A stretch of DNA of 64,000 bases from an uncultured Bacteroidales bacterium (GTDB taxonomy: Bacteria > Bacteroidota > Bacteroidia > Bacteroidales > VadinHA17): the NCBI GenBank assembly GCA_942492865.1, contig OW818650.1, forward strand, positions 23,892 through 87,891. Direction: 5' to 3'. Made by a program: the position numbers and the translations under genes. Shown piece after piece: positions 227 to 30,200 of this stretch (the stretch's first letter is position 1; each line of letters starts with the position of its first letter). The notes beneath the pieces were generated by a model. That model made no database searches. It was given only the letters and a program-made list of their open reading frames with translations, and was not told the origin of the DNA.

Positions 227-619
227 TAACGGCCCGGCAATAAAATTAGTAAACGTTACCCGACGCACCGACGGCCGGTGAGCACTGCACACTACTATGA
301 AGAAAATGTATCGAGGCCGGAGAAGGAGGGTACGGCGCGTGTTTTTGCAATCCAGGCAGAGAATTTAATTGAGTATTACGAGTGTCGCGGTACAAGATGT
401 GATGCGCGCCATATGTTGTCCACGGTTACAGCGTGGTCTAGGTGCACTGGTGCAGTGTCGCGGTACAAAGTTGATGCGCGCCAGTTGTTGTCCACGGTTA
501 CTGAGGTTTCTATGGGGCAGAGGCGGGAATCCGGGTTTATCACCAGCCAGTAGTTGTCCAACGTGCAGAGAATCAAAGCAAAAACCGTGACGAGTTTATT
601 AATTTTATTGTCCGTGTTA
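227..619 (+). repeat. Cassette-boundary element E1, type A (393 bp), giant attC-like structured repeat
   Basis: Starts cc-TAACGGCCCGGCAATAAAATTAGTAAACG and ends CGAGTTTATTAATTTTATTGTCCGTGTTA. Nearly identical to the copies at 7387, 10797, 12778 and 17622. Confidence 0.9.
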
Positions 620-1443: not shown

Positions 1444-1841
1444 TAACGGCCCGGCGGTATAATTAGTAAACGTTGCGGAGTCGACTGGAGGCCGCGGCAG
1501 AATGTTTTTCGCTTGGAATTCGCATGTTTCAAAGGCCGTATAGGAGCGTAGCACGGCGCGTGTTTTTGCTGTCAGGCAGTATTTTAATTGAGGGTAATGA
1601 GTAGTCGCGGTACAAAGGCCGGATGCGTGCCAGTTGTTATCACCGGTTACAAAGTGATCTTGGTGCAGTGGTGCAGTGTCGCGGTACAAAGCTGAACCCG
1701 CGCCGGTTGTTATCCCCGGTTACTGACTTTCCTTTTGGGCAGTGGCGGGAGTCAGGGTTTATCAGCGTGCCAGTTGTTATCCAAGGTGCAGAAAAGCCCG
1801 CAAAAACCGTGACGAGTTTATTAATTATACCGTCCGTGTTA
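1444..1841 (+). repeat. Cassette-boundary element E2, type B (398 bp)
   Basis: TAACGGCCCGGCGGTATAATTAGTAAACG ... CGAGTTTATTAATTATACCGTCCGTGTTA. The terminal helix carries compensatory changes relative to type A. Same type as 3121-3514. Confidence 0.9.
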
Positions 1842-2224: not shown

Positions 2225-2553
2225 TAACGGCCCGGCGGTATAATTGAGTAAACGGTGCTGCGCTACTGGAGGCCGGACAGATCAACCTCTCTCCTATCCT
2301 ACAATTTCTATGAGGCCGTAAGGAGCGAAGCACGGCGCGGTTTTTGCCGCCGTACTCTGCACTTTATTTGAGGTAGCGAGCTGATGCGGTACAATTAGGA
2401 TTGACGCGCCAGTTTTTTTCCCCAGTTACTGATAGCCGGTTATGTGCACTGGTGGGAACAAAGTGGCGTTATTCGCAATATCGGTTGTTTCTTTTGGTGC
2501 AGTAAGGAATTGCAAAAACCGTGACGAGTTTATTAATTATACCGTCCGTGTTA
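2225..2553 (+). repeat. Cassette-boundary element E3, type C (329 bp)
   Basis: Ends match type B (CGGTATAATT / AATTATACCG) but the interior is shorter and divergent. Near-identical to 4541-4868. Confidence 0.9.
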
Positions 2554-3120: not shown

Positions 3121-3514
3121 TAACGGCCCGGCGGTATAATTAGTAAACGTTGCGGAGTCGACTGGAGGCCGCACCCGAGATGTTTTCGCTTGGAATTCGG
3201 ATGTTTCAAAGGCCGTATAGGAGCGTAGCACGGCGCGTGTTTTTGCTGTCAGGCAGTATTTTGATTGAGGGTACTGTGTAGTCGCGGTACAAAGCCGGAT
3301 GCGCGCCAGTTGTTATCCCCGGTTACAAAGTGATCTTGATGCAGTGGTGCAGTGTCGCGGTACAAGGCCAAACCCGCGCCGGTTGTTATCCACGGTTACT
3401 GACTTTTCTTTCGGGTAGAGGCGGGAGTCCGGGTTTATCAGCAACTACTTGTTTATCAAGGTGCAGGACCCCGCAAAAACCGTGACGAGTTTATTAATTA
3501 TACCGTCCGTGTTA
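3121..3514 (+). repeat. Cassette-boundary element E4, type B (394 bp)
   Basis: Same termini and interior as E2. Confidence 0.9.
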
Positions 3515-4540: not shown

Positions 4541-4868
4541 TAACGGCCCGGCGGTATAATTTAGTAAACGTTGCTGAGCTACGGAAGGCCGGACAGAACA
4601 ACCTCTCTCCTATCCTACAATCTCTGTGAGGCCGTAAGGAGCGAAGCACGGCGCGGTTTTTGCCGCCGTACTCTGCATTAAATTTGAGGTAGTGAGCTGA
4701 TGCGGTACAATTATGATTGACGTGCCAGTTTTTTTCCCCAGTTACTGAAAGCAGGTTATGAGCACTGGAGGGAACAAAGTGGCTTTAATCGCAGTATCGG
4801 TATTTTCTTTTGGTGCAGTAGGATAAGCAAAAACCGTGACGAGTTTATTAATTATACCGTCCGTGTTA
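4541..4868 (+). repeat. Cassette-boundary element E5, type C (328 bp)
   Basis: Near-identical to E3. Confidence 0.9.
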
Positions 4869-5011
4869 GTGTGCCGTGCCATTTTGAAACTTGGAGCTTA
4901 TACAATGTTGTTTAAAAAACGTGAATTATTGTTTAGGCAGAAATAAAAGTCCCGGTTTAAGGCAGAAAATAATTATCGTTGTATTGGCCTTTGCATCAAG
5001 CGCATGGCCAC

Positions 5012-5283
5012 TAACGGCTCGGTGGTTGCGGTAGTAAGCGTTGGTGGCGCCGTCCGCCGTTGCGTGTCCCGGTACTTTAGGTCGGATTAGTCCCGGCGGG
5101 CAAGCCACCATGGCGCAATTTTTGCCAGTCCCGGCGAACGATAAAGTTGTCACGATAAACGGATTTGTCCAGAGCCGGAAGAAACGGAATTGGTAGATAA
5201 GTGAAAAGTTATTCGTCACGAAAAAATTGTCAAGGTAGTGAGCAAAAATTGTGACAAGCTTATTACCTCAACCATCCGGGTTA
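5012..5283 (+). repeat. Cassette-boundary element E6, type D (272 bp)
   Basis: TAACGGCTCGGTGGTTGCGGTAGTAAGC ... GCTTATTACCTCAACCATCCGGGTTA. Same architecture: terminal helix plus an inner CAATTTTTGC/GCAAAAATTG helix. Interior differs, with TTGTCAC-type motifs. Confidence 0.75.
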
Positions 5284-5512
5284 TGGTTAGTTCTAAAATT
5301 AAAACTGTCAAGATATTACGAATTTGTCATGGTAAAGAAATTTGTCTTGGTTCCAAATCCCGGTGAAAGAGCAGGAGTGGTCCAGTTTTACGAATTTGTC
5401 ACAAGTATGAATCCCTGTGGCAATGGTCCCGGTCCCGGATATACGGCGGGAATTGTCAAATATTGGATTTTACCCATAATGTCATAGATAACAAATGGAT
5501 GTTTTTTGGTCA

Positions 5513-6301: not shown

Positions 6302-6934
6302 TTAAAATTTATAAATTGCTCCAATTGTGATTGCATTCAAAGAAACAATGTTGCTTAGTCCAGCCCCAAAGTTAAAATTTGATCTTTTATCTGTAAAATC
6401 ATCTTCTTTGGATGTGCTATGACTATAACCAACACTTAATATATTGAGTGATGTTTCTATAGATAATTTCTCTGAAATATCATATGCCAATCCCGGGAAA
6501 ATACTTAAATACGTACTTGTTGTTTTAGGACCATCATTTATGGTTCCTCCTCTTTTAACACTTGATTTTGAGAATTCTAATCCAATATTTCCCTGACCAT
6601 AGATTGAGAACTTATTCCATTTAACTGCGTAATATCGCAAAAAAGGACTTACCCCGATACCGGAAGATTTGGATATGGTTTCATTATTACCATCTGTTTT
6701 GTTATAAGAAAGAGAATAATCTAATGCCAACCCTATAGCCAGCTTTTCAGATAGAAATTTGCCGACATTTGGCCTAAGGTTAAGATTATAACCAAACGAT
6801 TTTTGAGCAGGCATTCCCTGGAGATTATTGTTAGAGGTATTAAAACCAGCATTTCCTCCCACAAATACCTGAGCACTAGTATTGATGAAAACAAAAGAGC
6901 AAATAGCGATCAAAAAAACTTTACAGGATTTCAT
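6302..6934 (-). CDS. Outer-membrane beta-barrel (porin-family-like) protein
   Basis: 210-aa ORF with a signal peptide (FINTSAQ), beta-strand periodicity and a C-terminal ...GAIYKF typical of OMP barrels. Confidence 0.6.
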   Translation of the reverse strand: MKSCKVFLIAICSFVFINTSAQVFVGGNAGFNTSNNNLQGMPAQKSFGYNLNLRPNVGKFLSEKLAIGLALDYSLSYNKTDGNNETISKSSGIGVSPFLRYYAVKWNKFSIYGQGNIGLEFSKSSVKRGGTINDGPKTTSTYLSIFPGLAYDISEKLSIETSLNILSVGYSHSTSKEDDFTDKRSNFNFGAGLSNIVSLNAITIGAIYKF

Positions 6935-7127
6935 AAATATTATTTTTTGAATTATGCCTACTCTTTGGTTTTTCGGCCTCCACCAGTTGGTAATAAATAA
7001 GTTTTAGTGTTAATTACTTCACAGCAAAAATCAAACCAATCTTTTTTCTTAGGAATACCATAAAATCGACCTAAAGAACGTGCAGGAATAAGCTAGATAT
7101 AAGATATTTGTAATAGTTAACATCCCG

Positions 7128-7336
7128 GTAGATTAGCAGGTTTTGACTCTCTGTGAGAAATTTGTCACGTTAATAATCCCGGCAGATGGGCAGAAGTAGT
7201 CCAGATTTACGAATTTGTCACGGTTACCAATCCCGGCAAAAGGGCAGGAGTAGTCCAGTTTTACGAATTCGTCACAAGTTACCAATCCCGGTGGCGAAGC
7301 AGGATTTGTCACTATTTATGAACCTTGCTTGAGTTA
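7128..7336 (+). repeat. Degenerate type-D element (E6b) built from about 54-bp iterated units
   Basis: Begins gTTAACATCCCGG and ends GAGTTA followed by the same flank as E6 (TGGTTAGTTCT). The interior holds 3-4 units of AATCCCGG-N-GTAGTCCAG-TTTACGAATTTGTCAC. Confidence 0.5.
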
Positions 7337-7386
7337 TGGTTAGTTCTGAAAGAATTGGCAACTATCACGAAACTAAAGAATTAACC

Positions 7387-7781
7387 ATAACGGCCCGGCA
7401 ATAAAATTAGTAAACGTTACCCGACGCACCGACGGCCGGTGAGCACTACAGCCTACTATGAAGAAAATGTATCGAGGCCGGAGAAGGAGGGTACGGCGCG
7501 TGTTTTTGCTGTCCATGTAGAGAATTTAATTGAGTATTACGAGTGTCGCGGTACAAGATGTGATGCGCGCCATATGTTGTCCCCGGTTACAGAGGTGATC
7601 TAGGTGCACTGGTGCAGTGTCGCGGTACAATGCCAAATCGGCGCCAGTTGTTGTCCCCGGTTACTGACGTTTCTACGGGCAGGGCGGGAATCCGGGTTTA
7701 CCACCATACCAGTTGTTGTCCAACGTGCAGAGAATCAATGCAAAAACCGTGACGAGTTTATTAATTTTATTGTCCGTGTTA
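7387..7781 (+). repeat. Cassette-boundary element E7, type A (395 bp)
   Basis: Same termini and interior as E1. Confidence 0.9.
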
Positions 7782-10796: not shown

Positions 10797-11189
10797 TAAC
10801 GGCCCGGCAATAAAATTAGTAAACGTTACCCGACGCCACGACGGCCGGACAAGACAATGCCTACTAAGAAGAAAATGATTTGAGGCCGGAGAAGAAGGGT
10901 ACGGCGCGTGTTTTTGCTGTCCAGGCAGAGAATTTAATTGAGTATTACGAGTGTCGCGGTACAAAATGTGATGCGCGCCATATGTTGTCCCCGGTTACAG
11001 AGTGATCTAGGTGCACTGGTGCAGTGTCGCGGTACAAAGTTGATGCGCGCCAGTTGTTGTCCCCGGTTACTGAGGTTTCTTTCGGGCAGAGGCGGGAATC
11101 CGGGTTTATCACCATGCCATATGTTGTCCAACGAGCAGAGAATCAGAGCAAAAACCGTGACGAGTTTATTAATTTTATTGTCCGTGTTA
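10797..11189 (+). repeat. Cassette-boundary element E8, type A (393 bp)
   Basis: Same termini and interior as E1. Confidence 0.9.
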
Positions 11190-12777: not shown

Positions 12778-13169
12778 TAACGGCCCGGCAATAAAATTAG
12801 TAAACGTTACCCGACGCCCGGAGGCCGGTGAGCACTGCACCCTACTATGAAGAAAATGTATCGAGGCCGGAGAAGGAGGGTACGGCGCGTGTTTTTGCAG
12901 TCCAGGCAGAGAATTTAATTGAGTATTACGAGTGTCGCGGTACAAAATGTGATGCGCGCCATATGTTGTCCCCGGTTACAGAGTGATCTAGGTGCATAGG
13001 TGCAGTGTCGCGGTACAAGGCTGATGCGCGCCGGTTGTTGTCCACGGTTACTGATGTTTCTACGGGCAGAGGCGGGAATCCGGGTTTATCACCACGCCAG
13101 TTGTTGTCCAACGAGCAGAGAATCAATGCAAAAACCGTGACGAGTTTATTAATTTTATTGTCCGTGTTA
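12778..13169 (+). repeat. Cassette-boundary element E9, type A (392 bp)
   Basis: Same termini and interior as E1. Used as the exemplar for the fold analysis. Confidence 0.9.
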
Positions 13170-13208
13170 GGTGTTCGTGGTATTGTATTTGATTATATAT
13201 AAGCATTA

Positions 13209-13685
13209 TTAAAATCTATAAGAAATAGTTAATCCTGTACATAAAGGACCATTATTGTTAATGAAAACTGGTCTAAAACTAATTGAGTTATTATATTTAT
13301 TGTGCTCAATCATTACCTTTTTTATATTATGAGATCGGCTAATACCTATATTACACGCGATAACTCCGCCTCCAATTAGGCCGTAGCCAAGGATTTTATA
13401 AATACCTTTCATCACGCGGCTGCCCAGAATTTCTTCACCAAAAGTAGCATCCTCAGGCAATCCATTTTTATAGGTAGTATTGGCAACCAGGATTGATAAA
13501 CATCCTAAACCTATACTACAACCACCAGCAATGGTGACTTTCTTATAATCTTGGAAAGATATGGTGAGCTGTTCATTCGTGAGATCTCTGATATCATTGA
13601 CACCATATTGTTTTGTGTACCACTGACTTTTTAACGAGCAATTCAGTAATAATAAAATTAGTTGAGCACATAAAAGGCGTTTCAT
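13209..13685 (-). CDS. Hypothetical secreted/membrane protein (cassette cargo)
   Basis: 158-aa ORF with a signal peptide and Gly-rich hydrophobic segments. Confidence 0.5.
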   Translation of the reverse strand: MKRLLCAQLILLLLNCSLKSQWYTKQYGVNDIRDLTNEQLTISFQDYKKVTIAGGCSIGLGCLSILVANTTYKNGLPEDATFGEEILGSRVMKGIYKILGYGLIGGGVIACNIGISRSHNIKKVMIEHNKYNNSISFRPVFINNNGPLCTGLTISYRF

Positions 13686-13840
13686 CTTTTAAGTATTAGA
13701 AAGGAGTAAAAGTAAATTGTTGAATCTTTCGAGAATGCGAAGTTTGAAGGCTGCTCAGTATGTTTGTAAGAAGGTATGTCCAATACTTGTCATAAGTTTC
13801 TAAACGAACAAAAATATTTTAAAATCCAAATGATTATCGC

Positions 13841-15727
13841 ATCGAGTAGGTAAAGGGGAGTTTCACCCCTAAACCTCTCACGGAACCGTACGTGATACTC
13901 TCGCATCATACGGCTCTTGTTATACAAAAAAAGTCAAGCGGTTTCGAAGCCATGCTGCCAGTGTACAAATAAATCGGGTTGCCGTTTAGCAAGATCCCGA
14001 ATCCATCGACCAGCTTTCTTATGACTACCATTAAACCGTTTATACCGTTTAACCACCCACATGTTCAACCTGCGATGAAAGACACTGAATATCCACTGTA
14101 ACTCGTGTTTCCTGTATTTCCCAAAGTGATCAATCCAGCTCTTAATCTTCGGGTTGAAGAAAGCAGCTATGTGGTATATATCCCTGTTGGTCCAATTGTG
14201 AAAATTTGAGTCACGTATCTCGTCAATGATCCTCTTCTCGTTCTTCTTGCTAATCGCACAATCAAATCCTAAGAACATTCTGCCCTCTTCTTTATTCATT
14301 GCCGGTCTTGGCTGAAAGCTGAATCCCAGAAAATCAAACTGCACTGTATTATAGTCGGCATTGCGCCGTGCTTTCTTACAGTATACAATTTTCGTCTTCT
14401 TTTCATTCAGTTGCAGCTTGCATTCGACCATTCTCTCCCTTATGGCTTTTAGAACTTCCTCTGCTTCCTGCTGCGTATTACAGTGAACAATTATGTCATC
14501 TGCATAGCGTACAAATCGAAGCTTCGGGTATGTCTTTCCAAGCCATTTGTCAAAAGCATAATGAAGGAATAGGTTCGCAAGCAGAGGACTAATTACTCCT
14601 CCCTGCGGTGTGCCCTCTCCCATCCTGTATCTCTTGCCACCTTTTCTATCTTCTATCGCGGCTTCAAGCCACCTCACGAGATACATCTTTACCCATTTCT
14701 CCTCAACATGCCTTTCAACTGCCTTCATGAGCAGCTCGTGTGACATCTTGTCGAAGAAACTTGATATGTCCATGTCGACAACCCACTCGAACTCCCGCAC
14801 ATTTCTACGAACCTGTGCGATTGCCTGATGAGTACTTCTAAGTGGTCGATATCCGTAAGAGCTTTCCACAAATATAGCTTCAAAGCGGGCTTCAAGGTAA
14901 TCTTTGATGACCTGCTGCGCTATCCGGTCTCTTACTATGGGTATTCCAAGCTTACGCTTTCTCCCATCATCCTTAGGAATTTCTACTTCGAGAACTGAAG
15001 TTGGTCGGTAGCTGCCTGAACTCAGGCGGTTCCAGATCACATAGAGATTGTTAGATAATTTCTCTTCAAACTTCTCCAGAGTCTCCCCATCTATCCCGGC
15101 TGCTCCCTTGTTCTTCTTTACTCTCTTGTAGGCGGCGACTACCATTTCCTGGGTAATCGGTATGCTTTTCGTCTCCGTTGTCCTACTCCTACCCCGGTTA
15201 TCCAAGGGTGGTAGAGGCAATTTCAACTGTATAACCTCAGCCCTTCGCTCCGCTCCCATTACAGGAGTTTCATCACTACTACGACTGAGTCTGTCCTCAT
15301 ACAAGTCATCAGTATTCGGCCTCCCGGGTTGTCCTCCTGGTTGTGCCTTTCCTTTACCATCCTTGTATGAGTTCCCCTGTTCCATAACTAAGCCTGAATA
15401 GAAATCATGCCCCCTTTATGCCGTCTGCCATGCAGCCAGTAAGCAGGTGCCCGCTGCACTTTGGTCCCCCAGCAGCCATAAACCGGTGGTTTTGACAGAT
15501 TGTCGTTCTCTCGACACTTCATCGAAGGTTCATTTTCATTCATCTTTCCTATTCTTACCTGATCCTTTTGGCAGGACCTTTTCCCCTTACCGTTTAGTAC
15601 CTCGCCGTTGCCAGTTCAGCACCGAGGGGCGGTTTCCGGGTACGCCTGTACGTCCCCGTGAGAGGCCATACTCTCATCTTAATTACAGCATCAGATCCCG
15701 TTGGTACGAGGTCTGTTCAGGGCACAC
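13841..15727 (-). mobile_element. Group II intron, copy 1 (intact, 1887 bp)
   Basis: On the minus strand the 5' end reads GTGTGCCCTGAAC (GUGYG). A 34-nt domain V, GAGCCGTATGATGCGAGAGTATCACGTACGGTTC, is the reverse complement of 13883-13916 and shows the AGC triad, a 2-nt bulge and a GAGA tetraloop. A domain VI-like hairpin follows and the intron ends ...CTACTCGAT. Encodes an RT/maturase. Confidence 0.9.
13934..15385 (-). CDS. Group II intron reverse transcriptase/maturase (no endonuclease domain evident)
   Basis: 483 aa with RT motifs (AAGIDG, RKLGIPIVRDRIAQ, FVRYADDIIVHC) and a C-terminal maturase-like region. Confidence 0.9.
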   Translation of the reverse strand: MEQGNSYKDGKGKAQPGGQPGRPNTDDLYEDRLSRSSDETPVMGAERRAEVIQLKLPLPPLDNRGRSRTTETKSIPITQEMVVAAYKRVKKNKGAAGIDGETLEKFEEKLSNNLYVIWNRLSSGSYRPTSVLEVEIPKDDGRKRKLGIPIVRDRIAQQVIKDYLEARFEAIFVESSYGYRPLRSTHQAIAQVRRNVREFEWVVDMDISSFFDKMSHELLMKAVERHVEEKWVKMYLVRWLEAAIEDRKGGKRYRMGEGTPQGGVISPLLANLFLHYAFDKWLGKTYPKLRFVRYADDIIVHCNTQQEAEEVLKAIRERMVECKLQLNEKKTKIVYCKKARRNADYNTVQFDFLGFSFQPRPAMNKEEGRMFLGFDCAISKKNEKRIIDEIRDSNFHNWTNRDIYHIAAFFNPKIKSWIDHFGKYRKHELQWIFSVFHRRLNMWVVKRYKRFNGSHKKAGRWIRDLAKRQPDLFVHWQHGFETA

Positions 15728-17613
15728 ATCGAGTAGGTAAAGGGGAGTTTCACCCCTAAACCTCTCACGGAACCGTACGTGATACTCTCGCATCATACGG
15801 CTCTTGTTATACAAAAAAAGTCAAGCGGTTTCGAAGCCATGCTGCCAGTGTACAAATAAATCGGGTTGCCGTTTAGCAAGATCCCGAATCCATCGACCAG
15901 CTTTCTTATGACTACCATTAAACCGTTTATACCGTTTAACCACCCACATGTTCAACCTGCGATGAAAGACACTGAATATCCACTGTAACTCGTGTTTCCT
16001 GTATTTCCCAAAGTGATCAATCCAGCTCTTAATCTTCGGGTTGAAGAAAGCAGCTATGTGGTATATATCCCTGTTGGTCCAATTGTGAAAATTTGAGTCA
16101 CGTATCTCGTCAATGATCCTCTTCTCGTTCTTCTTGCTAATCGCACAATCAAATCCTAAGAACATTCTGCCCTCTTCTTTATTCATTGCCGGTCTTGGCT
16201 GAAAGCTGAATCCCAGAAAATCAAACTGCACTGTATTATAGTCGGCATTGCGCCGTGCTTTCTTACAGTATACAATTTTCGTCTTCTTTTCATTCAGTTG
16301 CAGCTTGCATTCGACCATTCTCTCCCTTATGGCTTTTAGAACTTCCTCTGCTTCCTGCTGCGTATTACAGTGAACAATTATGTCATCTGCATAGCGTACA
16401 AATCGAAGCTTCGGGTATGTCTTTCCAAGCCATTTGTCAAAAGCATAATGAAGGAATAGGTTCGCAAGCAGAGGACTAATTACTCCTCCTGCGGTGTGCC
16501 CTCTCCCATCCTGTATCTCTTGCCACCTTTTCTATCTTCTATCGCGGCTTCAAGCCACCTCACGAGATACATCTTTACCCATTTCTCCTCAACATGCCTT
16601 TCAACTGCCTTCATGAGCAGCTCGTGTGACATCTTGTCGAAGAAACTTGATATGTCCATGTCGACAACCCACTCGAACTCCCGCACATTTCTACGAACCT
16701 GTGCGATTGCCTGATGAGTACTTCTAAGTGGTCGATATCCGTAAGAGCTTTCCACAAATATAGCTTCAAAGCGGGCTTCAAGGTAATCTTTGATGACCTG
16801 CTGCGCTATCCGGTCTCTTACTATGGGTATTCCAAGCTTACGCTTTCTCCCATCATCCTTAGGAATTTCTACTTCGAGAACTGAAGTTGGTCGGTAGCTG
16901 CCTGAACTCAGGCGGTTCCAGATCACATAGAGATTGTTAGATAATTTCTCTTCAAACTTCTCCAGAGTCTCCCCATCTATCCCGGCTGCTCCCTTGTTCT
17001 TCTTTACTCTCTTGTAGGCGGCGACTACCATTTCCTGGGTAATCGGTATGCTTTTCGTCTCCGTTGTCCTACTCCTACCCCGGTTATCCAAGGGTGGTAG
17101 AGGCAATTTCAACTGTATAACCTCAGCCCTTCGCTCCGCTCCCATTACAGGAGTTTCATCACTACTACGACTGAGTCTGTCCTCATACAAGTCATCAGTA
17201 TTCGGCCTCCCGGGTTGTCCTCCTGGTTGTGCCTTTCCTTTACCATCCTTGTATGAGTTCCCCTGTTCCATAACTAAGCCTGAATAGAAATCATGCCCCC
17301 TTTATGCCGTCTGCCATGCAGCCAGTAAGCAGGTGCCCGCTGCACTTTGGTCCCCCAGCAGCCATAAACCGGTGGTTTTGACAGATTGTCGTTCTCTCGA
17401 CACTTCATCGAAGGTTCATTTTCATTCATCTTTCCTATTCTTACCTGATCCTTTTGGCAGGACCTTTTCCCCTTACCGTTTAGTACCTCGCCGTTGCCAG
17501 TTCAGCACCGAGGGGCGGTTTCCGGGTACGCCTGTACGTCCCCGTGAGAGGCCATACTCTCATCTTAATTACAGCATCAGATCCCGTTGGTACGAGGTCT
17601 GTTCAGGGCACAC
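15728..17613 (-). mobile_element. Group II intron, copy 2 (1886 bp, head-to-tail with copy 1)
   Basis: By eye identical to copy 1 except for one missing C in the run at about 16488-16490. Its 5' end lies 8 nt from the TAAC of E10. Confidence 0.85.
15821..17271 (-). pseudogene. Frameshifted group II intron RT/maturase
   Basis: A 1-nt deletion (ctccctgc becomes ctcctgc) splits the ORF into 16480-17271 and 15821-16318, which otherwise translate identically to copy 1. Confidence 0.85.
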
Positions 17614-17621
17614 ATGACACC

Positions 17622-18013
17622 TAACGGCCCGGCAATAAAATTAGTAAACGTTACCCGACGCCCGGAGGCCGGGGAGCACTACACACTACTATGAAGAGAA
17701 TGTATCGAGGCCGGAGAAGGAGGGTACGGCGCGTGTTTTTGCAGTCCAGGCAGAGAATTTAATTGAGTATTAAGAGTGTCGCGGTACAAGATGTGATGCG
17801 CGCCATATGTTGTCCCCGGTTACAGTGTAATCTAGGTGCACTGGTGCAGTGTCGCGGTACAAAGTTGATGCGCGCAGGTTGTTGTCCACGGTTACTGTGG
17901 TTTCTAAGGGCAGAGGCGGGAATCCGGGTTTATCACCAAGCCAGTTGTTGTCCAACGTGCAGAGAATCAATGCAAAAACCGTGACGAGTTTATTAATTTT
18001 ATTGTCCGTGTTA
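17622..18013 (+). repeat. Cassette-boundary element E10, type A (392 bp)
   Basis: Same termini and interior as E1. Confidence 0.9.
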
Positions 18014-20056: not shown

Positions 20057-20455
20057 TAACGGCCCGGCAATAAAAGTCGTTTGCAGTGCGTAGTCGACCG
20101 GAGGCCGCCAGCAGAATTTCAAGGGTTTGTTAAAGCATAAATCTACTAAAGGCCGTAGGGAGCGAAGCATGGCGCAATTTTTGCCATCACGGCACAATTT
20201 TGCTTGGTGCTGGCGCGATCGCGGTACAAGTTTTCGGGCGACTGAGATTGAGTCATGGTTCTAAGTATGGTCGAAGACGTTTGCGCAGTTTCGCGGTACA
20301 ATACTTGGTCGGAGCCACAATCTGTCACGGTACAGAAGTTTAGTAGAGGGCAGATGAGCGTATCACGGCATAAGAGTTTGGGCAGAAACTAATCTTGTAA
20401 GCAGGAATAAAACGCAAAAATTGTGACAAGCAAATGACTTTTATTGTCCGTGTTA
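20057..20455 (+). repeat. Cassette-boundary element E11, type E (399 bp)
   Basis: TAACGGCCCGGCAATAAAAGTCGTTTGC ... GCAAATGACTTTTATTGTCCGTGTTA. The terminal helix is re-coded with compensatory changes. The inner CAATTTTTGC/GCAAAAATTG helix and TCGCGGTACAA motifs are retained. Confidence 0.85.
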
Positions 20456-21627: not shown

Positions 21628-21683
21628 TGTCTTAATCTAATCTTCTAATCAAATCTTAGAGTCTAGTCGTGTGCAATGGTTTA

Positions 21684-21704
21684 TAACTTGCTGATAAACC
21701 GTTA
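21684..21704. repeat. Possible collapsed boundary site (TAAC-13 nt-GTTA)
   Basis: caatGGTTTATAACttgctgataaaccGTTAT. The left flank is the reverse complement of the E11 right flank (GTTATAAACC). Confidence 0.35.
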
Positions 21705-21741: not shown

Positions 21742-22290
21742 TTATTCAATAAATACTTGTTTTAAAATTGAAATCATTTTATAAAAAGAGTAAATAATCC
21801 CAATTATTACTGCAATAAAAACCGCAATTAATATTGATTGATGGCACAGTAACAAGTTTCCTAATGGTATTATTGCCAGGCAGAATACAATAATTGCAGC
21901 AGTCACGGTGGAATAATTTATTGTTTTATTTAAAATTTCTTCTCTTTTAGGAAATATTTTAAGAAATTCTTCCGAATGTCGTTTATAATTCCCTTCCTGC
22001 GGTATTTTTTCTTTCTCATTCAAATCCAGAGCACTTTTAATTTTTCTGAAATCCTTTTGCTCTAAACCCTCTTTAATATCTTTATGGACCTTAACACCTA
22101 TTTTTATCTTATCTTTATCAAAATCAGGCGGATACCAGGTGCGAGCATCTTGATAAATTTCATTTGATTTTTTTGTTAAGACCTCAGACAGTATTTGAAT
22201 TTTGAATATTGTAAAAACCCCAAATAAAGCTAGAATGCCACCCAGAACTTGAGGTGTTGCACTGAAGAAGTAGTAAAATGAATTATCCAT
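21742..22290 (-). CDS. Hypothetical membrane protein
   Basis: 182-aa ORF with hydrophobic helices at both ends. Confidence 0.5.
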   Translation of the reverse strand: MDNSFYYFFSATPQVLGGILALFGVFTIFKIQILSEVLTKKSNEIYQDARTWYPPDFDKDKIKIGVKVHKDIKEGLEQKDFRKIKSALDLNEKEKIPQEGNYKRHSEEFLKIFPKREEILNKTINYSTVTAAIIVFCLAIIPLGNLLLCHQSILIAVFIAVIIGIIYSFYKMISILKQVFIE

Positions 22291-22396
22291 AGTATGAAGT
22301 TTAACTCAGTCTTATTTTGGATTTTGTTTCTGATTCGCAAATCATCTCAGGGAAATAATCTTTATGGTAAGGAAGCCAATGGTTTATAACTTGTTT

Positions 22397-22447
22397 ATAG
22401 ATGCATAAAAATTACTTAAAATGTGCTTTTTAGGGTGGATAGTGTTA
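22397..22447. repeat. Possible collapsed boundary site (TAAC...GTGTTAGGTTT)
   Basis: The caatggtttATAACTTG block seen at 21675 repeats here. About 40 nt later comes aGTGTTAGGTTT, identical to the E2 right junction. Confidence 0.3.
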
Positions 22448-22496
22448 GGTTTAAGATTATTGGATGATGAAGTGATACTTCATAAATGAGGACCGG

Positions 22497-23828
22497 CTAT
22501 TCTTCGCGGGTGAAGGTGTTGAGACGACCTCCTTGATTCATTTCAAACTGATTATCTCCGGGCTTGAAATAAATGATTATTCCTGCCGGATCAAACCTGA
22601 ACTCATCCTTACCTGTTGCTTCAAGCGGGAAAGATGGCTGACCTGTTCCCTGCCCGTATAACCGGCCGTTGTTCTTGCTGATCGTGAGCTTTATCGGTAT
22701 TGCCGGATTTGAATATACCCCCAGGTACTTGTCGAGGTCTCCAGGATTTACGTTGTAAACGTTGAATTGCGGCAGCTTTTCATTCTTGCCGTAATAATTG
22801 TTCAATGTCCGCAGGATTATATCATTTACAGAATATACAGTTCCGTTTGAACAATAAGAAACCGCCAGCCTGTCCGCAGGAATATACAACAGAAGGGAGT
22901 TAAAACCATCAATGCCTCCTGCATGTCCGTAAATAGTCTTATCTTCATAAGGAAGCTTCATTATCCCCATCCCCATCCCATCAGTAATTGTGGTCATTGT
23001 GCCCAAACTCTCCTCACTTATTAGCCTGCCATCAAATAAAGCAGTTATAAACCTGAGAAGATCGGTAGGAGTCGATACGACAGCACCGGCACCGTGTGGA
23101 ATACTCATGTCTGTCTCCGGCGATTTGTTCCAACTTCTGTCGTAAGTGTAGGAATAGGTCTCATTTTTCGACAGGTCTGTACTGCTTCCGTAATAAGTGC
23201 TTGCCAGACCAGCCTTTGAACATATATATTTTTGAAGCACCTCATTGTAAGCCGCCTTGCGTAGTTCCTCTATAATGTAACCGAGCAGAATGTAATTGGA
23301 GTTGCTGTATGAGAACTTCTTCCCAGGTTCAAAATCAGATGAAAAAGCCGACATTACTTCAACCATCTCACTCTTAGTCTTAGGTTTTGTCATATAACTG
23401 GTATATGCAGGATCACTTGTTAAATTATGAATTCCACTCCGGTGATTCAACAGATTACCGATAGTTATCTTTCCTGCATTTGGTACCTGAGGAAAAAACC
23501 TGTCAAGAGTAGTCGTGAGCTGAAGCTTATTCTCTTCAATGAGCTGAAAAATAAGAGTTGAAGTGAACATCTTGGAGATAGAACCGATCCTGTATTTTGT
23601 TTCCGGAGTTGATAAAACCTTTTCAGGCGATACCGATGCATAACCGATAGCCCTGGAATAAATCATACTACCCTTATCCATAAGAGCAAGACTTCCCATT
23701 GCCTTGTTCTTTTCACCAAGTAGTGTCAGAAGGCTGTCTTCAAAAGCCTGGCTGAATCCGTTCTGGCCAAATGCTGAAAAGATTAGCAAAGCCTGAAGAA
23801 GAACTAAAGTAAAAATAAACTTTTTCAT
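22497..23828 (-). CDS. Serine hydrolase, beta-lactamase (class C-like)/PBP family
   Basis: 443 aa with a signal peptide, an SxxK motif (GSISKMF) and a YSN motif (YSNSNY). Confidence 0.8.
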   Translation of the reverse strand: MKKFIFTLVLLQALLIFSAFGQNGFSQAFEDSLLTLLGEKNKAMGSLALMDKGSMIYSRAIGYASVSPEKVLSTPETKYRIGSISKMFTSTLIFQLIEENKLQLTTTLDRFFPQVPNAGKITIGNLLNHRSGIHNLTSDPAYTSYMTKPKTKSEMVEVMSAFSSDFEPGKKFSYSNSNYILLGYIIEELRKAAYNEVLQKYICSKAGLASTYYGSSTDLSKNETYSYTYDRSWNKSPETDMSIPHGAGAVVSTPTDLLRFITALFDGRLISEESLGTMTTITDGMGMGIMKLPYEDKTIYGHAGGIDGFNSLLLYIPADRLAVSYCSNGTVYSVNDIILRTLNNYYGKNEKLPQFNVYNVNPGDLDKYLGVYSNPAIPIKLTISKNNGRLYGQGTGQPSFPLEATGKDEFRFDPAGIIIYFKPGDNQFEMNQGGRLNTFTREE

Positions 23829-24092
23829 GAAAATTGCGTATTAAATTGGAGCCCTAATGAATAAATTGTTATGATAAGATTCAACGAAGTTCAGCAGGGG
23901 TCCTCTTATGCGTTCGCCCCGTCAGTCACAAGAGCATTTCACTTAATCAACAACACAAATTATTCTCCAAAAAATACTACGGCCTGACTTTTAAACTTTC
24001 AACTGCTTTAACCCAACTCCAGATTTAGCAGAATTTTTGCTTTCACAAAACTAAATTTACAGTTTTTTTTCATAATCAAAAATTTTTCAGCC

Positions 24093-24177
24093 TAACCTTT
24101 TACTTATTCTTCACCTGACATTATTTATATAAATGTCTATTTATAAATTTTCAAAGCAGGCTCATGATAACTGGTTA
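24093..24177. repeat. Possible collapsed boundary site (cagccTAAC ... ctgGTTAtc)
   Basis: CTAAC at 24092-24096. The perfect palindrome GATAACtgGTTATC lies at 24166-24179. Confidence 0.25.
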
Positions 24178-24252
24178 TCAATTAATTATAAATTGAAGTT
24201 TTGAATGCTTTAGTATATGCCTGAATAAGTCGGACTGGCTTCAGGTGAAATA

Positions 24253-24711
24253 TTATCTTAATTGCACTAATACCGTTTTTATTTCCTGCACATAATCCTG
24301 AATCTGTGCCGGGAGACTGGCAATATTCGTATCAAAATGCCATTTTGTTATTTTGCCATTTTCCTGAATTTCAATGTGTATACCACCCTGATCGGCACAA
24401 TCGGGACAACCGAAGGTCTTATCCGGATTGTCTATCAAATATTTCGGGAAGTTGTCAATCAACTTTTTTGCAATATCATATTTTTCAACTGACAGAGCTT
24501 CTCCACTAAACTCTAATGATGTTCCATTATAGGATGCCACATTATCCGGATAGAGCCTGCTGTCCTTCATCATAAAAAAATTAGCGCAATCTCCCTGGCA
24601 GAATCCATAAGCATCACCAAAAGCAAAATAATCTATGTTACCCAGATCTTCCTTTGAACATGAAGACAAGAAAATAAAAACAAAAATTATAATTAAAAAC
24701 TTAATTTTCAT
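24253..24711 (-). CDS. Hypothetical lipoprotein
   Basis: 152 aa with a signal peptide ending FLSSCSK. Confidence 0.55.
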   Translation of the reverse strand: MKIKFLIIIFVFIFLSSCSKEDLGNIDYFAFGDAYGFCQGDCANFFMMKDSRLYPDNVASYNGTSLEFSGEALSVEKYDIAKKLIDNFPKYLIDNPDKTFGCPDCADQGGIHIEIQENGKITKWHFDTNIASLPAQIQDYVQEIKTVLVQLR

Positions 24712-24828: not shown

Positions 24829-26388
24829 TCATTCATGTACTCCAGTCTTTTCCAGGTGCAAATAATCAACTACCTGCTCTTTCACGTCAAGATCCTCAAT
24901 AGGACTTCTGATTGCCACCAGATTCCTGCGGCTGACGTGAGTATATATCTCTGTTGTGCGGGTGCTTTTGTGACCAAGTAGCTCCTGAATATATCTTATA
25001 TCAAGTCCATTCTCATGCAGATGCGTTGCGTAACTGTGCCTCAGGCTGTGAACGCCCACTTCCTTCTGTATGCCGGCATCTCTTAATGCTTTCTTGAAAA
25101 CATGATAAACGCTTTCAACGGAATACCGCTGACCCCTCTGGCCTTCAAAAAGATATTTTCCCGGACGATGGCTTTCAAGATACTCATCAACCTTCGGCCA
25201 GAGTTTACCTGGCACCGGAACAATCCGGTCAACTCCCCCCTTCCCTTCCCGAATGTGAAGAATATTACGCTCCCTGTCAAAATCGGTGAGCCTGATATTT
25301 GTAACCTCCGATCTCCTCAGCCCACAGGAATAAATAATCCAAAGGAGCAACTTGTGCTTGCTGTTACGCGCAGAGTTAAGTATTCTGGCTATCTCATCTT
25401 TGGAAAAGACCTTCGGCAATGCTCTGCTGCGCCTGGGCCTCTCAAGTATCCCGGGTATAATTCTCCCTTTTCCGGCGAGCTCATAATAAAGCTTGATCGC
25501 CGAAACCATCTGGTTTTGAAATGATGCGGAAAAGCCGTGCTTCAAAACAAAGTCATTAATGAAGTCCGACACTTCATTATGGGATATTTCATGCGGATCT
25601 TTTGTATGATAGTACTTAAAAAATAATTCAAGCTGGGAAATGTATGACTCAATTGTCCTGTTACTATACCTGTATTCTTCGAGATGCCTCCGTAAAAGTT
25701 CAACTCCTTCCCTTGCAGCTGTTTTAAGTTCCCTTGACCTTACTTCTTCACCTGAGGCCTTCCGGGCCTCTGCAACATCTGCTTTTGGTGCCTGCTTTAA
25801 TACAATGACCTTCACCCCCTGGCCAGAGAAGTAATCGGACAATGAATCAACGGTAATCTTCGACCACTTAAGAAGAAACTCCCTGTGAACCTTGTCATAA
25901 TAATACTTACCGTAACTTCTGATCTCATCAATCCATTTCTTATCATAGTAACCGGTGAACCTTACAGACAACCGCTCATCTTCAATGCGGAATTCAACCG
26001 GTGAATATCCTGATGTGAATGACCTTTCATGGAAATCTTTTTTTCCTTCAACTAAGTCATCATCACGGATTTTCTCTTTAACTATTTTTATTTCAGTTCT
26101 GGGGATGAGCGCTTCTTCCTCATGATGATCAGGAACATGATCAGGTATTTTGAGCCCGCCATAGTAGGCTGTATTCGATAGATCGATATCTGCTACCTCC
26201 CTGAAAGCCATCAGAACCTTCCTGAGGTTTTCTTTGTTATCCTCAATATGCCAGCATTTTAGCGAACCGCTGTAATTAACTCCATTAAGTTGTTTTGTAA
26301 TTGAAATAAGTTCCCTGTCATACACGAATTCAAGAGACAATCTTCGCCTTTCATCATGTATGATGTGCCTTACAGTGATCTTTTTCAT
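24829..26388 (-). CDS. Tyrosine recombinase/integrase with a long N-terminal extension
   Basis: C-terminal catalytic motifs: GLRRSE (R), HSLRHSYATH (HxxR), LLGHKS, IYTHV (Y). Preceded by about 250 aa, including two similar modules (RRRLSLEFVYD... and ERLSVRFTGYYD...). Start taken at MKKITVRH (26388). The ORF track extends to 26496. Confidence 0.85.
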   Translation of the reverse strand: MKKITVRHIIHDERRRLSLEFVYDRELISITKQLNGVNYSGSLKCWHIEDNKENLRKVLMAFREVADIDLSNTAYYGGLKIPDHVPDHHEEEALIPRTEIKIVKEKIRDDDLVEGKKDFHERSFTSGYSPVEFRIEDERLSVRFTGYYDKKWIDEIRSYGKYYYDKVHREFLLKWSKITVDSLSDYFSGQGVKVIVLKQAPKADVAEARKASGEEVRSRELKTAAREGVELLRRHLEEYRYSNRTIESYISQLELFFKYYHTKDPHEISHNEVSDFINDFVLKHGFSASFQNQMVSAIKLYYELAGKGRIIPGILERPRRSRALPKVFSKDEIARILNSARNSKHKLLLWIIYSCGLRRSEVTNIRLTDFDRERNILHIREGKGGVDRIVPVPGKLWPKVDEYLESHRPGKYLFEGQRGQRYSVESVYHVFKKALRDAGIQKEVGVHSLRHSYATHLHENGLDIRYIQELLGHKSTRTTEIYTHVSRRNLVAIRSPIEDLDVKEQVVDYLHLEKTGVHE

Positions 26389-26652
26389 AAGCAGCGAGAG
26401 TAAGAATTTAGCACTTTGAACTACTCCAATACATGAGATAAACACGGATTGAAAAAGCAGTCTGCATAGCAAGTTACAAAGAATTAGAAAAACCACAAAA
26501 AGTTTTCAATTGCTGTCACTCATTTAACTAAATCATTTCAATAAGTTGTCCAACATATCCAAAAAGTACTATAGATATATCAATTTGCATTATCGGAATT
26601 GTTGACTATTTTTGTGAAAGTTTTGCCGTCTTGCTGAAAGAGGTAAAAAATC

Positions 26653-26726
26653 CGGGGTGTGGCGCAGTTGGCTAGCGCACTTGCATGGGGTGCAAGGGGT
26701 CGTCCGTTCAAGTCGGATCACCCCGA
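26653..26726 (+). tRNA. tRNA-Pro (anticodon GGG)
   Basis: Hand-folded cloverleaf. Acceptor CGGGGTG/CACCCCG with C1:G72, D stem GCGC/GCGC, anticodon stem CTTGC/GCAAG, loop ATGGGGT (U33, GGG, G37), T arm GTCCG-TTCAAGT-CGGAT, discriminator A. Confidence 0.85.
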
Positions 26727-26740
26727 CAAAAGGTATAATG

Positions 26741-27217: not shown

Positions 27218-30200
27218 TTATCTGAAAACTACCAAGTTTTTTGAAATTATGCCCTTTGCGGTCGAGATTTTCATTAAATAGTTTCCTGTTGAAAGTTGCG
27301 AGAGATCGATTCTAACCTTTTGTGACTTTATCGTTTTTTCTAATAAAACTGAACCTAACAAATTTAAAACTTGGACATGGTTTAAAATTAAGTCAGACTC
27401 AAGTACAACCTCATGATTTGCCGGATTTGGATAAACTTTAATATTTAATGATTCAGTTTCTGCAATGGACGATATGTTTTTCTTTGCGAGAACATTCATG
27501 GTTATCCCATACCAAGAACCAAGATACAAGCCGCCAATTTGATCATGAATTGAAAACCCAGAATATGGAATTCCATCTGAAGAATAATGCACATAATAAT
27601 GTCTGTTAACGTTATAAAAATTTGCTCCGTTCTTGGTAAGCAAAAAAGTTTGATCTTCCGATAATCCAATACAGGAAATCCAATCATTAATGTTTGATAT
27701 TGCTTTTAAATCAGCCCAGTCTGCAATAGAATAATTTTCGCCGAATTCTGATTGAATTCGTGTATTAAGATTTTCCGTTTCAGCATATTGTCCTTTTGTT
27801 AATAAAAAATTATTACATAAAGGATTTGATCCCTGAGTAAAATTTGCTACGAGGTTCCTGTTTGATGTTAGAGTGAAGGTATATGTTGCATTAGAAGATA
27901 CCACTGATCCGCTTTCCGTCCAGTTAGAAAATGAATAGCCACTGGTTGGAGTTGCTGTTACTGATCGGGAGGTTCCACTCTGGAATGTCCCAGATCCGTT
28001 AGTAGTACCGCCACCTGAGGGATTAGAAGAAGTAGTGATAGTATAGTTTACAGGATTCTGTGTGAAATTTGCTACGAGGTTCCTGTTTGATGTTAGAGTG
28101 AAGGTATATGTTGCATTAGAAGATACCACTGATCCGCTTTCCGTCCAGTTAGAAAATGAATAGCCGCTGGTTGGAGTTGCTGTTACTGATCGGGAGGTTC
28201 CACTCTGGAATGTCCCAGATCCGTTAGTAGTACCGCCACCTGAGGGATTAGAAGAAGTAGTGATAGTATAGTTTACAGGATTCTGTGTGAAATTTGCTAC
28301 GAGGTTCCTGTTTGATGTTAGAGTGAAGGTATATGTTGCATTAGAAGATACCACTGATCCGCTTTCCGTCCAGTTAGAAAATGAATAGCCACTGGTTGGA
28401 GTTGCTGTTACTGATCGGGAGGTTCCACTCTGGAATGTCCCAGATCCGTTAGTAGTACCGCCACCTGAGGGATTAGAAGAAGTAGTGATAGTATAGTTTA
28501 CAGGATTCTGTGTGAAATTTGCTACGAGGTTCCTGTTTGATGTTAGAGTGAAGGTATATGTTGCATTAGAAGATACCACTGATCCGCTTTCCGTCCAGTT
28601 AGAAAATGAATAGCCACTGGTTGGAGTTGCTGTTACTGATCGGGAGGTTCCACTCTGGAATGTCCCAGATCCGTTAGTAGTACCGCCACCTGAGGGATTA
28701 GAAGAAGTAGTGATAGTATAGTTTACAGGATTCTGTGTGAAATTTGCTACGAGGTTCCTGTTTGATGTTAGAGTGAAGGTATATGTTGCATTAGAAGATA
28801 CCACTGATCCGCTTTCCGTCCAGTTAGAAAATGAATAGCCGCTGGTTGGAGTTGCTGTTACTGATCGGGAGGTTCCACTCTGGAATGTCCCAGATCCGTT
28901 AGTAGTACCGCCACCTGAGGGATTAGAAGAAGTAGTGATAGTATAGTTTACAGGATTCTGTGTGAAATTTGCTACGAGGTTACTGTTTGATGTTAGAGTG
29001 AAGGTATATGTTGCATTAGAAGATACCACTGATCCGCTTTCCGTCCAGTTAGAAAATGAATAGCCACTGGTTGGAGTTGCTGTTACTGATCGGGAGGTTC
29101 CACATAGATATGTCCCAGATCCTCCAGTAGTGCCTCCTCCTGTAGGATTTGAGGATAAATTAATTGAATAGTATATCGGTGAGAAGTGAGCGAAAAGATT
29201 TGTATTTTCATAAACATAAAAAGAATATGTAGCATTTGTTGATACAACCGAACCGTTATCATTAGTCCAATAGTTGAATGAATAACAATTTTTTGGCGTA
29301 GCGGTAACAATTACCTTATCTCCGTAAAAATAAGTCCCATTTCCAGATGTTGTGCCGCCATTGGAGGGAACCGAGGATGTTGAAACCAGATTTGTTTCCC
29401 TTATAAAAATCCCTCTTTCTCTCTGAGTTGTCATATTCCCAACATTATCATAAGCACGAACTCTAAAAAAATATGTATGACCTCTTACTCCTGTAAATGA
29501 ATAATTAAATTCAGGTCCAATATTTGGGAATGGTGATAATTGTTGCCATGCAGCAGCATTTGTAGTTACAAATCCGACATTATCTGCATATTCTAATTCA
29601 ACCTTCCAAATGCCACTCTCGTTACCAGTATTATTTAGATTATCTATTGGGTATGTGTAAACAATAAATGATGTTTCATCACTAAGGTCTCCCATAGGAA
29701 TTTCATTATTGTTGCTATCATAAATACCAATGTAGGCCCCCCCGCTGAAAATGGCAAAAACAGGAGCATCAGCATCGGTAATTTGTTGAATGAATTTTGT
29801 TTCAACAAGGTCATCAAACAATAAATCATTTTCCTTCAGTTCGAGATGCAAATATTTAGATGGCTTATCTGAATATGTTGGATTCAAGACCTGCATGTTA
29901 AATGTGAAATATGACATACTTCCAAGTGAAATTATATTCGATTTGTTATTGCTTGAAGTAGAAAAAAATGAATTCCATGGTAATGTTGGCTCATCTGCAA
30001 TATTAAGATAATATTTCCCAGATTCATTGGCTCTTATTTTTAAACCAACTATTGCACCATTAGTTGGAAGATTGTTACGAGAAGGTAGGTAGATAGGACC
30101 TGTAAGAGAATTTGGGACATAAACTCTATATTGGTCAATGCCAATGTTGCTACCACTTATTTCAGTAATATATGCTTGAGAGGAAGCTTGGGTTACGGTT

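Follow-up and report, generated by a model that had tools for sequence, protein, structure and literature searches.

Giant attC-like elements as probable recombination sites of an integron-like cassette array in an uncultured Bacteroidales bacterium

The window analysed here is a 64,000-nt stretch of DNA from an uncultured Bacteroidales bacterium (VadinHA17; GCA_942492865.1, contig OW818650.1, 23,892–87,891, forward strand), in which minus-strand open reading frames (ORFs) are separated by copies of a long structured element, exemplified by the copy termed E9. We conclude that each element is probably the recombination site of a mobile gene cassette, i.e. a giant folded analogue of attC in an integron-like array. 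The first-pass annotation of the window had likened the element to the folded single-stranded DNA (ssDNA) of attC recombination, a reading now strongly supported by complementary cassette flanks, a conserved attI with its G|TT junction, linkage to a recombinase gene and covarying helices. A recombinase, an attI and cassettes with folded palindromic sites would together make the system functionally an integron.

RESULTS

Covarying helices define the element

A profile built from nine copies located 11 elements in the window, all on the + strand, 272–399 nt long and lying within 227–20455 (Table 1), and none in the other 43.5 kb. The same alternation of ORFs with single elements, all in one orientation, is seen in L020, L059, L102, L123 and others, where L-numbers denote loci in other metagenome-assembled genomes (MAGs) or metagenome contigs that were compared with the window.

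E9 reads TAAC-GGCCC-GGCAATAAAATTAGTAAAC...GTTTATTAATTTTATTGTC-CGT-GTTA. The first-pass annotation had drawn it with a 19-bp helix P1 (nt 10–28 with 367–385 of E9), an asymmetric loop GGCCC/CGT and the pair TAAC/GTTA outside it, a second helix P2 (nt 109–121 with 351–362), and a 79-nt insert closed by TACCC/GGGTA. The boundaries given for E9 (12778–13169, 392 nt, TAAC...GTTA) proved exact and every one of these parts is present, P1 comprising 17 Watson-Crick pairs and two G·T, and P2 12 pairs with one bulged T and one G·T. The alternative arm sequences quoted for P1 (types B/C, D and E) and for P2 were all found as quoted, down to the one C opposite T in P1 of type D. The G·T at P1 position 2 can be redrawn as a bulged T (nt 384, 13161) with a CGG/CCG register, which would place a bulge on the arm matching the R''-L'' arm, where attC has conserved extrahelical bases that select the bottom strand; in some types a bulge is found on the other arm, and the fixed asymmetries are mostly G·T.

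Covariation was assessed in an alignment of 25 divergent copies from many Bacteroidales MAGs, in which the 5' part, through the P2 5' arm, was joined to the 3' part. RNAalifold recovered P1, the insert-closing stem and P2, with changes on both sides in 23 of 41 pairs, so that the compensatory changes in nested helices previously noted within the window are borne out in copies that include other genomes. Paired cells make up 98.7% of the alignment's helical positions, against 83.8% in shuffles (none of 500 reaches the observed value) and 37–44% when the partner is slid along, and the covariation score of 0.456 (0.173 shuffled) is likewise reached by 0/500 shuffles. The two variable P2 pairs beside the A5/T5 run occur in five Watson-Crick combinations (CC/GG, TT/AA, AT/AT, GT/AC and GC/GC). 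In a comparison set of 54 distinct complete elements (206–468 nt; site lengths across loci span 206–481 nt) there are 34 distinct P1 arm pairs, widely divergent and still complementary, and the minimum free energy (MFE) folds of short and long types alike give the same three-way architecture. P1, the insert stem and P2 are real covarying helices.

The distal domain behaves differently. RNAalifold found no covariation-supported helix in its ~230 nt, where only an unsupported pairing of two CGCGG motifs appeared, and conserved distal helices were dropped for repeated sequence modules. The length of the domain is quantised (115, 155, 193, 229, 252 or 305 nt), and the TGTC-NN-GGT-N-CA motif of the modules is similar to the L'-spacer-R' end (TTGTCCGTGTTA). 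Some elements form a second group, alike in ends, spacer and P1 but with another inner 3' segment (TTGTCCGGGCTGC).

The borders of the elements carry a cassette signature

In all ten pairs of adjacent elements in the window, the bases that follow GTTA of one element are the reverse complement of those that precede TAAC of the next, the match being perfect over 7–10 bp including GTTA/TAAC. When ten other loci are added, 26 of 28 pairs have 5–6 variable complementary bases; past the complementary stretch a G always faces T, and T stands at −7 in 54 of 55 left flanks. A circular cassette cut at G|TT of R' yields a linear form that starts with TTA-N5 and has N5'-TAAC and the rest of the site at its end, and the flank complementarity of the elements reads as this signature of integron cassettes. 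Set against the attC consensus RYYYAAC/GTTRRRY, the AAC/GTT and the following A are invariant; GTTAGGT fits, whereas GTTATAA, GTTAGCC and GTTAGCA do not.

The content of the cassettes is typical of chromosomal integrons. One carries a gene for a ParE toxin, overlapped on its upstream side by an ORF with no Pfam match, and homologues of this cassette occur in two other loci from the element pattern scan (in L073 the homologue is ~0.4 kb from a verified element). Other cassette proteins belong to the RES, NERD, thioredoxin-like, YARHG and DUF3795 families, and many ORFs have no family.

Between E5 and E6 (4869–5011) lies a 143-nt 'empty' cassette with no ORF, whose flank complementarity is only 7 bp including GTTA. 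Module-like repeats (TTTGTCAC, ATCCCGG, GTCCAG) occur outside complete elements at 5320–5460 and 7110–7387, on either side of the E6–E7 cassette. The E6 junction (5279–5294) recurs as GAG|TTATGGTTAGTTCT at 7330–7346, which delimits a 56-nt unit with complementary ends. These remnants may represent an element that has degenerated or been split, or else another type of site.

Cassettes vary at a conserved attI

Read along the minus strand, the window presents the recombinase gene, two fixed genes, attI and then the cassettes, each made of one or more ORFs followed by one element. The attI motif AAAC[CA]TAAC[AG]CTATCCACCC-N35-ATAAAC[AG]AG|TTA is found in 36 recombinase-bearing loci besides the window, drawn from a scan of metagenome contigs and look-ups of encoding contigs. 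In every case the copy that bears the crossover lies downstream of the recombinase gene; L144, L147 and L148, which are related loci, have an extra, degenerate copy upstream of that gene, with no AAACRAG|TTA end.

The crossover was mapped by comparing loci that share an attI. L125–L127, which are ~96% identical to the window, are collinear with it from 27894 down to 22385 and then enter a different cassette, the first cassette of L125 starting with TTATAGTGC, ending with GCACTATAAC and being followed by an element of another type. L124, from another sample, and L123 are identical over 3896 nt and diverge at ...GACGAG|TT, 122 nt beyond the stop codon. Different sequence directly after G|TT is also seen within the groups L200/201/202, L137/138, L144/147/148 and L133/135/146, whose attI stretches are identical as displayed, so that six independent sets (L123/L124, window/L125 and these four groups) have the same attI and different first cassettes. 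A conserved attI with variable first cassettes at G|TT indicates site-specific insertion of cassettes at an attI beside the recombinase. Position 21687 had been a candidate for attI and was rejected, as the comparison with L125 puts the attI crossover at 22390|22389.

At the crossover attI and the elements have only GTTA in common and share no 6–8-bp overlap, which makes a classical two-strand exchange that needs homology unlikely. All 37 attI junctions retain the spacer of attI itself, and this, with only GTTA shared, argues for the exchange of one strand.

The surroundings of attI hold further features. A 152-aa lipoprotein-like ORF and a gene for a 443-aa beta-lactamase-family protein, kept in a related strain, occupy the minus strand between recombinase and attI (22497–24711). 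A 17-nt direct repeat, CAAGTTATAAACCATTG on the coding strand, at 21674–21690 and 22377–22393 flanks a 182-aa ORF (21742–22290); the unit, which lacks a giant element, closes with a 7-bp hairpin (GGTTTAT-CAGCAAG|TT-ATAAACC) whose loop holds the crossover, and may carry a minimal attC or be the product of attI × attI recombination. Cassette-like inserts beginning TTGTACGTAACGCGG follow G|TT at three different attI sites (L123, 11653–15900; L148; L150). The L123 insert has two copies of an IS91/Y2-transposase gene, and an IS91-like element may exploit the GTT of attI.

The recombinase is XerA-like

The closest solved relatives of the tyrosine recombinase are archaeal XerA/Xer (4a8e, 5hxy), followed by VchIntIA (2A3V), and it also matches IntI4 significantly in both sequence and fold. 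In the alignment to VchIntIA (IntI4), however, residues 182–248, which contain the IntI-specific insertion, are matched by only 24 residues, and the score of 200.7 with TIGR02249, the NCBIfam integron integrase model, is below the cutoff of 265, whereas the XerA model scores just above its own. The identity as a canonical IntI was rejected on these two grounds, and the recombinase is not an IntI, a point that the first-pass annotation had not seen.

About 230 extra N-terminal residues are predicted to form two beta-beta-alpha-beta-beta-alpha modules (predicted local distance difference test, pLDDT, >90) with a disordered linker between them. The N-terminal 205 aa have no Pfam match, and a search of PDB folds gave none that was significant for these domains, the best hits (E ~0.1–0.5), to the SMARCAL1 HARP domain and the XPB N-terminal domain, being a lead only. 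The family is large: of the 8000 candidates scored, 5812 proteins reach E ≤ 1e-20, and the best-scoring ones are mostly ~470–550 aa long.

In four related assemblies (L125–L128) the recombinase is annotated as two overlapping genes (141 and 380 aa), either through a frameshift or through an assembly error, where the window has an intact ORF (24829–26496 compared). A tRNA-Pro(GGG) gene, 26653–26727 on the + strand, lies directly upstream of the recombinase gene and divergent from it, and the platform may sit at a tRNA locus.

Elements and recombinase occur together

An exact-pattern scan with one genome per species returned at least 119 stretches with the element pattern; among the matches listed, ~35 carry elements, several of them in arrays, and almost all are in Bacteroidales, Bacteroidia or Bacteroidota MAGs. 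Metagenome contigs yielded 80 loci of the recombinase family, and every element match in 89 recombinase-centred loci is downstream of the recombinase, on the strand opposite to the gene. In L123, a contig of 2.47 Mb, the recombinase homologue is followed by four elements in the same relative orientation. Many contigs stop within ~1 kb downstream of the recombinase, where repeats are expected to break assemblies. Neither elements nor full-length recombinase homologues were found on 72,556 plasmids.

The TAAC...GTTA ends and the 19-bp inverted arms superficially resemble terminal inverted repeats, and the elements might on this ground be taken for non-autonomous transposons (miniature inverted-repeat transposable elements) that accumulated in one region by chance. 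Flanks and distribution effectively refute this, leaving it a negligible probability: there are no target-site duplications, the flanks being instead the inverted complements of the neighbouring element's flank, the copies have one orientation only and form arrays only downstream of one recombinase family, the arms covary and are not conserved in sequence, and plasmids have no match.

The putative folded strand

With the geometry of the crossover it is possible to ask which strand would be processed. Tyrosine recombinases cleave at the 5' edge of the central region, forming a 3'-phosphotyrosine, and for IntI the cut is at AA|C of the bottom strand. Only on the + strand (5'-N5-TAA|C-GGCCC-GGC...) does the mapped crossover, between the R arm and the spacer, coincide with the spacer's 5' edge; from this geometry, together with tyrosine-recombinase chemistry, we infer that the + strand is the one cleaved.

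The pairs themselves point the same way at certain positions. It had been claimed that the mismatches of P1 are mainly G opposite T, and across the elements P1 positions indeed give 70 G·T against 3 A·C; these occupy two fixed positions, so that the strand argument reduces to four or five invariant G·T positions. These are R stem +7/−7 (26/26), P1 position 2, P1 position 14 (25/25) and P2; P2 has a G·T in 20 of 25 copies and A-T in the rest. On the minus strand the fixed G·T positions turn into A·C mismatches, and their invariance amid types that covary freely is notable.

All 54 elements also have their more stable fold on the + strand, the margin being 7.8 kcal/mol with DNA and 22 kcal/mol with RNA parameters. 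Composition-matched shuffles already differ by 5.1 and 17 kcal/mol, respectively, and an excess this small adds little weight. The plus-strand folding that the first-pass annotation favoured finds only partial support in the energies; it gains from the invariant G·T pairs and from where the crossover falls, at TAA|C in the 5' arm of the + strand.

The helices might instead act mainly as RNA, either as a stabiliser in the 3' untranslated region, a terminator or an insulator on the minus-strand cassette mRNA, or as an antisense RNA from the + strand, with recombination proceeding through the TAAC/GTTA ends only. Covariation is blind to the difference between RNA and DNA, G·U wobbles are well tolerated in RNA, and the RNA parameters give the larger stability of the + strand. 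We nevertheless hold this to be very improbable, since that difference is mostly compositional, all cassette ORFs are antisense to the better-pairing strand, and the outermost stem uses cassette-specific bases that become contiguous only after excision. In Rfam 15 there was no match at the gathering score, and none for E9 even at E ≤ 1; nothing was found in support of the plus-strand RNA that had been offered as an alternative in the first-pass annotation.

Group II introns beside the hairpin

The cassette that owns E9 contains two tandem group II introns on its coding strand, inserted precisely 11 nt past the G|TT of E10 (TTAGGTGTCAT^GTGTG). A 77%-identical intron in L098 (6152–6800) has the same 11-nt offset from another element (TTAGCTTTAAT^GTGTG). 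Like group IIC-attC introns, these are small group II introns next to cassette recombination hairpins, where tandem copies are possible; unlike them, they occupy the coding strand at the 11-nt offset from G|TT, whereas the target of IIC-attC introns is the bottom strand, against the direction of cassette transcription (Leon et al. 2010, PMC3001079). Such introns habitually insert just after palindromic sequences (PMC3001079), a targeting habit that insertion beside the base of the hairpin fits. The introns of the window may represent a lineage that homes to giant hairpins, on the strand opposite to that of the IIC-attC introns.

Other features of the window

The Rfam model of the cis-regulatory RNA motif DUF805b matches 6955–6986 on the minus strand with 37 bits (gathering score 35.6), inside a cassette and directly upstream of ORF 6302–6934. 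Beyond the recombinase, ORF 27218–30313 (−) encodes 1031 aa with a C-terminal secretion-sorting tail and contains six tandem 225-nt repeats (27833–29257, 99% identical) that encode repeated domains; the repeat number is collapsed in the L125 and L126 assemblies.

Table 1. Elements of the array, substructures of E9 and associated features in the window
Feature	Position	Strand	Description
E1	227–619	+	type A
E2	1444–1841	+	type B
E3	2225–2553	+	type C; one fewer distal repeat unit
E4	3121–3514	+	type B
E5	4541–4868	+	type C
E6	5012–5283	+	type D; 272 nt, shortest in window
E7	7388–7781	+	type A
E8	10797–11189	+	type A
E9	12778–13169	+	exemplar giant attC-like element, 392 nt; + is the putative folded and exchanged ('bottom') strand
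R box 5' half (TAAC)	12778–12781	+	putative cleavage TAA|C, equal to coding-strand cassette boundary G|TT; invariant in all copies
Internal loop 5' side (GGCCC)	12782–12786	+	opposite CGT 13163–13165; putative analogue of unpaired central spacer
P1 5' arm (L-box stem), 19 nt	12787–12805	+	14/22 helix pairs covary
Inserted hairpin domain, ~79 nt	12807–12885	+	closed by TACCC/GGGTA; 5/5 closing pairs covary
P2 5' arm (CGCGtGTTTTTGC)	12886–12898	+	alignment, covariation
Distal domain	12899–13127	+	about seven ~36-nt modules with TGTC-NN-GGT-N-CA motif
P2 3' arm (GCAAAAACCGTG)	13128–13139	+	covariation
P1 3' arm	13144–13162	+	covariation
R box 3' half (GTTA)	13166–13169	+	next 5 nt GGTGT pair with ACACC 17617–17621, before E10
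Cassette owning E9	12781–17624	−	TTAGGTGTCAT (from 17624 down), two introns, ORF 13209–13685, to the C of TAAC at 12781
Two tandem group II introns	13841–17613	−	1886–1887 nt each; reverse transcriptase ORF 13934–15385, 483 aa
E10	17622–18013	+	type A
E11	20057–20455	+	type E; closest element to attI
attI	22388–22451	−	AACCTAACACTATCCACCC...CTATAAACAAG|TTA; crossover between 22390 and 22389
Tyrosine recombinase	24829–26391	−	520 aa, XerA-like; no IntI-specific insertion; two N-terminal modules

DISCUSSION

A model for recombination at the elements

We propose that the + strand, which is opposite to the ORFs, would fold once it is single-stranded. TAAC and GTTA would form the R-box stem, extended in the excised circle by the 5–6 cassette-specific pairs and the fixed G·T, and above it would follow the asymmetric unpaired spacer GGCCC/CGT and then the 19-bp P1. 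Next would come a three-way junction with the ~79-nt hairpin and P2, the latter enclosing a distal domain of 115–305 nt built of ~36-nt modules. One recombinase protomer would bind the R stem and another the base of P1 (two in all), cleavage of the + strand at TAA|C would lead to its exchange with the same strand of either attI (...AAACRAG|TTA) or a second element, and the product would be resolved by replication, as in integrons. It is from the sequences that we infer the single-stranded substrate, the cleaved strand, the replicative resolution and the two protomers. More speculatively, the TGTC..GGT..CA modules would be extra binding sites for the recombinase or for its two N-terminal domains.

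A number of points weigh against such a folded single-stranded site. About two thirds of the energy difference between the strands is base composition, G·T and A·C occur equally often as sporadic mismatches (6 and 7 cells), and the MFE of whole elements is no better than that of dinucleotide shuffles (z = −0.5 for +, −0.7 for −); as this last measure is not significant it was left unused as evidence. A stem whose arms are 340 nt apart would need a long single-stranded stretch, and the recombinase has no IntI insertion, the reader of extrahelical bases in integrons, so that recognition of structure would need another device. The distance between attI and the recombinase gene is 2.4 kb in the genome of the window; in other genomes attI begins 0–120 nt after the recombinase stop codon, or 0.5–2 kb away. 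The distal motifs, having no helices, suit protein binding to duplex DNA equally well, and excision and recombination of cassettes are deduced here from sequence.

In an alternative reading, the same cassette system works on double-stranded DNA. The P1 arms and the R box would then be inverted binding sites, the modules arm-type or accessory sites as in lambda attP, and heterology would be tolerated as it is with the CTnDOT/Tn916 integrases, so that no hairpin would be needed. Sequence-conserved modules with no supported helices, a recombinase with two additional N-terminal domains and no structure-reading insertion, and an unremarkable folding energy of the whole element would all agree with this. 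We judge it unlikely nonetheless, because P1, the insert stem and P2 vary and yet stay complementary, where the binding sites of one protein would keep their sequence, and because the 5–6 complementary cassette-specific flank bases can be understood only as a stem of the circular cassette. Strand asymmetry of the fixed G·T positions is a further argument, as is the exact placement of every junction at G|TT with no mixed spacer.

Relation to known recombination systems

The folded site that we favour shares many traits with the attC of integrons, in particular with large chromosomal ones such as the VCR. One site stands at the 3' end of each cassette, in one orientation; the site is an imperfect palindrome with AAC...GTT ends and a G|TT crossover, and the start of the cassette is complementary to its own R'' box. 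The succession of R stem, unpaired asymmetric spacer, L stem and branched variable terminal structure is the same, as are the high similarity of sites within an array, the toxin-antitoxin cassettes and the attI beside the integrase. The elements differ in their length of 206–481 nt (~57–141 for attC) and in a terminal structure of ~340 nt, compared with 65 nt in the VCR (Bouvier et al. 2009, PMC2727003). They also have a conserved interior with a fixed three-way junction, P2 and repeated ~36-nt modules, their strand asymmetry consists mainly of fixed G·T and not of clear extrahelical G and T, their R stem runs 5–6 variable bp and a G·T past GTTA, and the recombinase that accompanies them is not IntI.

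With IntI (VchIntIA, 2A3V) the recombinase has in common a simple Xer-like tyrosine recombinase core and a gene beside attI and the array. In contrast to IntI, it has no IntI insertion, has ~230 extra N-terminal residues in two repeated domains, and is encoded by a gene co-oriented with the cassettes, an arrangement that to our knowledge is otherwise known only for the 'inverted integrase' group of integrons. Because the IntI insertion is missing and the size range of attC is exceeded, we do not file the system as a canonical integron.

The link to XerA and to XerC/D-dif lies in the catalytic part, whose closest relatives in sequence and structure are archaeal XerA. Xer-type enzymes also move gene modules bounded by short sites in the pdif modules of Acinetobacter plasmids; dif sites are ~28-bp duplexes with a 6-bp spacer and have no cassette-specific stem, long palindrome or dedicated attI. 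Lambda attP resembles the elements in being a large site (>200 bp) with repeated motifs, used by a recombinase with an additional N-terminal domain (DNA-binding in lambda), and its arm-type sites are a possible analogy for the distal modules. It differs in that attP is duplex and not palindromic and that exchange needs an identical overlap, and the PDB fold search gave no similarity of the N-terminal domains to the arm-binding domain of lambda Int.

Implications

The site search of IntegronFinder reaches only ~200 bp, and standard integron finders would miss these sites; existing annotation pipelines label the recombinase 'XerD' or 'integron integrase' and overlook the sites. Integrons have been considered nearly absent from Bacteroidetes, where an earlier survey by the authors of IntegronFinder 2.0 found only In0 elements (PMC9024848). 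The literature that was searched holds no published description of such a gene-capture system in Bacteroidales, an absence that is not proof.

What we describe is a platform with the logic of an integron in dozens of Bacteroidales MAGs and metagenome contigs, with a different lineage of recombinase and sites three to eight times the length of attC. As a tentative extension, which we put at somewhat below an even chance, the platform may be a second class of integron, widespread in uncultured Bacteroidales and missed by integron finders, in which a XerA-like recombinase with no IntI insertion uses two N-terminal structure- or arm-binding domains to recognise 200–480-nt three-way-junction ssDNA sites, the modules being extra binding sites. 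If so, the single-strand capture of cassettes either arose on two occasions or is much more ancient and plastic than the IntI/attC paradigm implies.

If the system is confirmed, structure-specific single-strand recombination would be possible with no IntI-specific domain, and the recurrent breaks of assemblies just downstream of the recombinase genes would be explained. It would also supply a new structure-specific recombination tool and a vast new reservoir of cassettes for mining, with toxin-antitoxin and defence-like genes among them.

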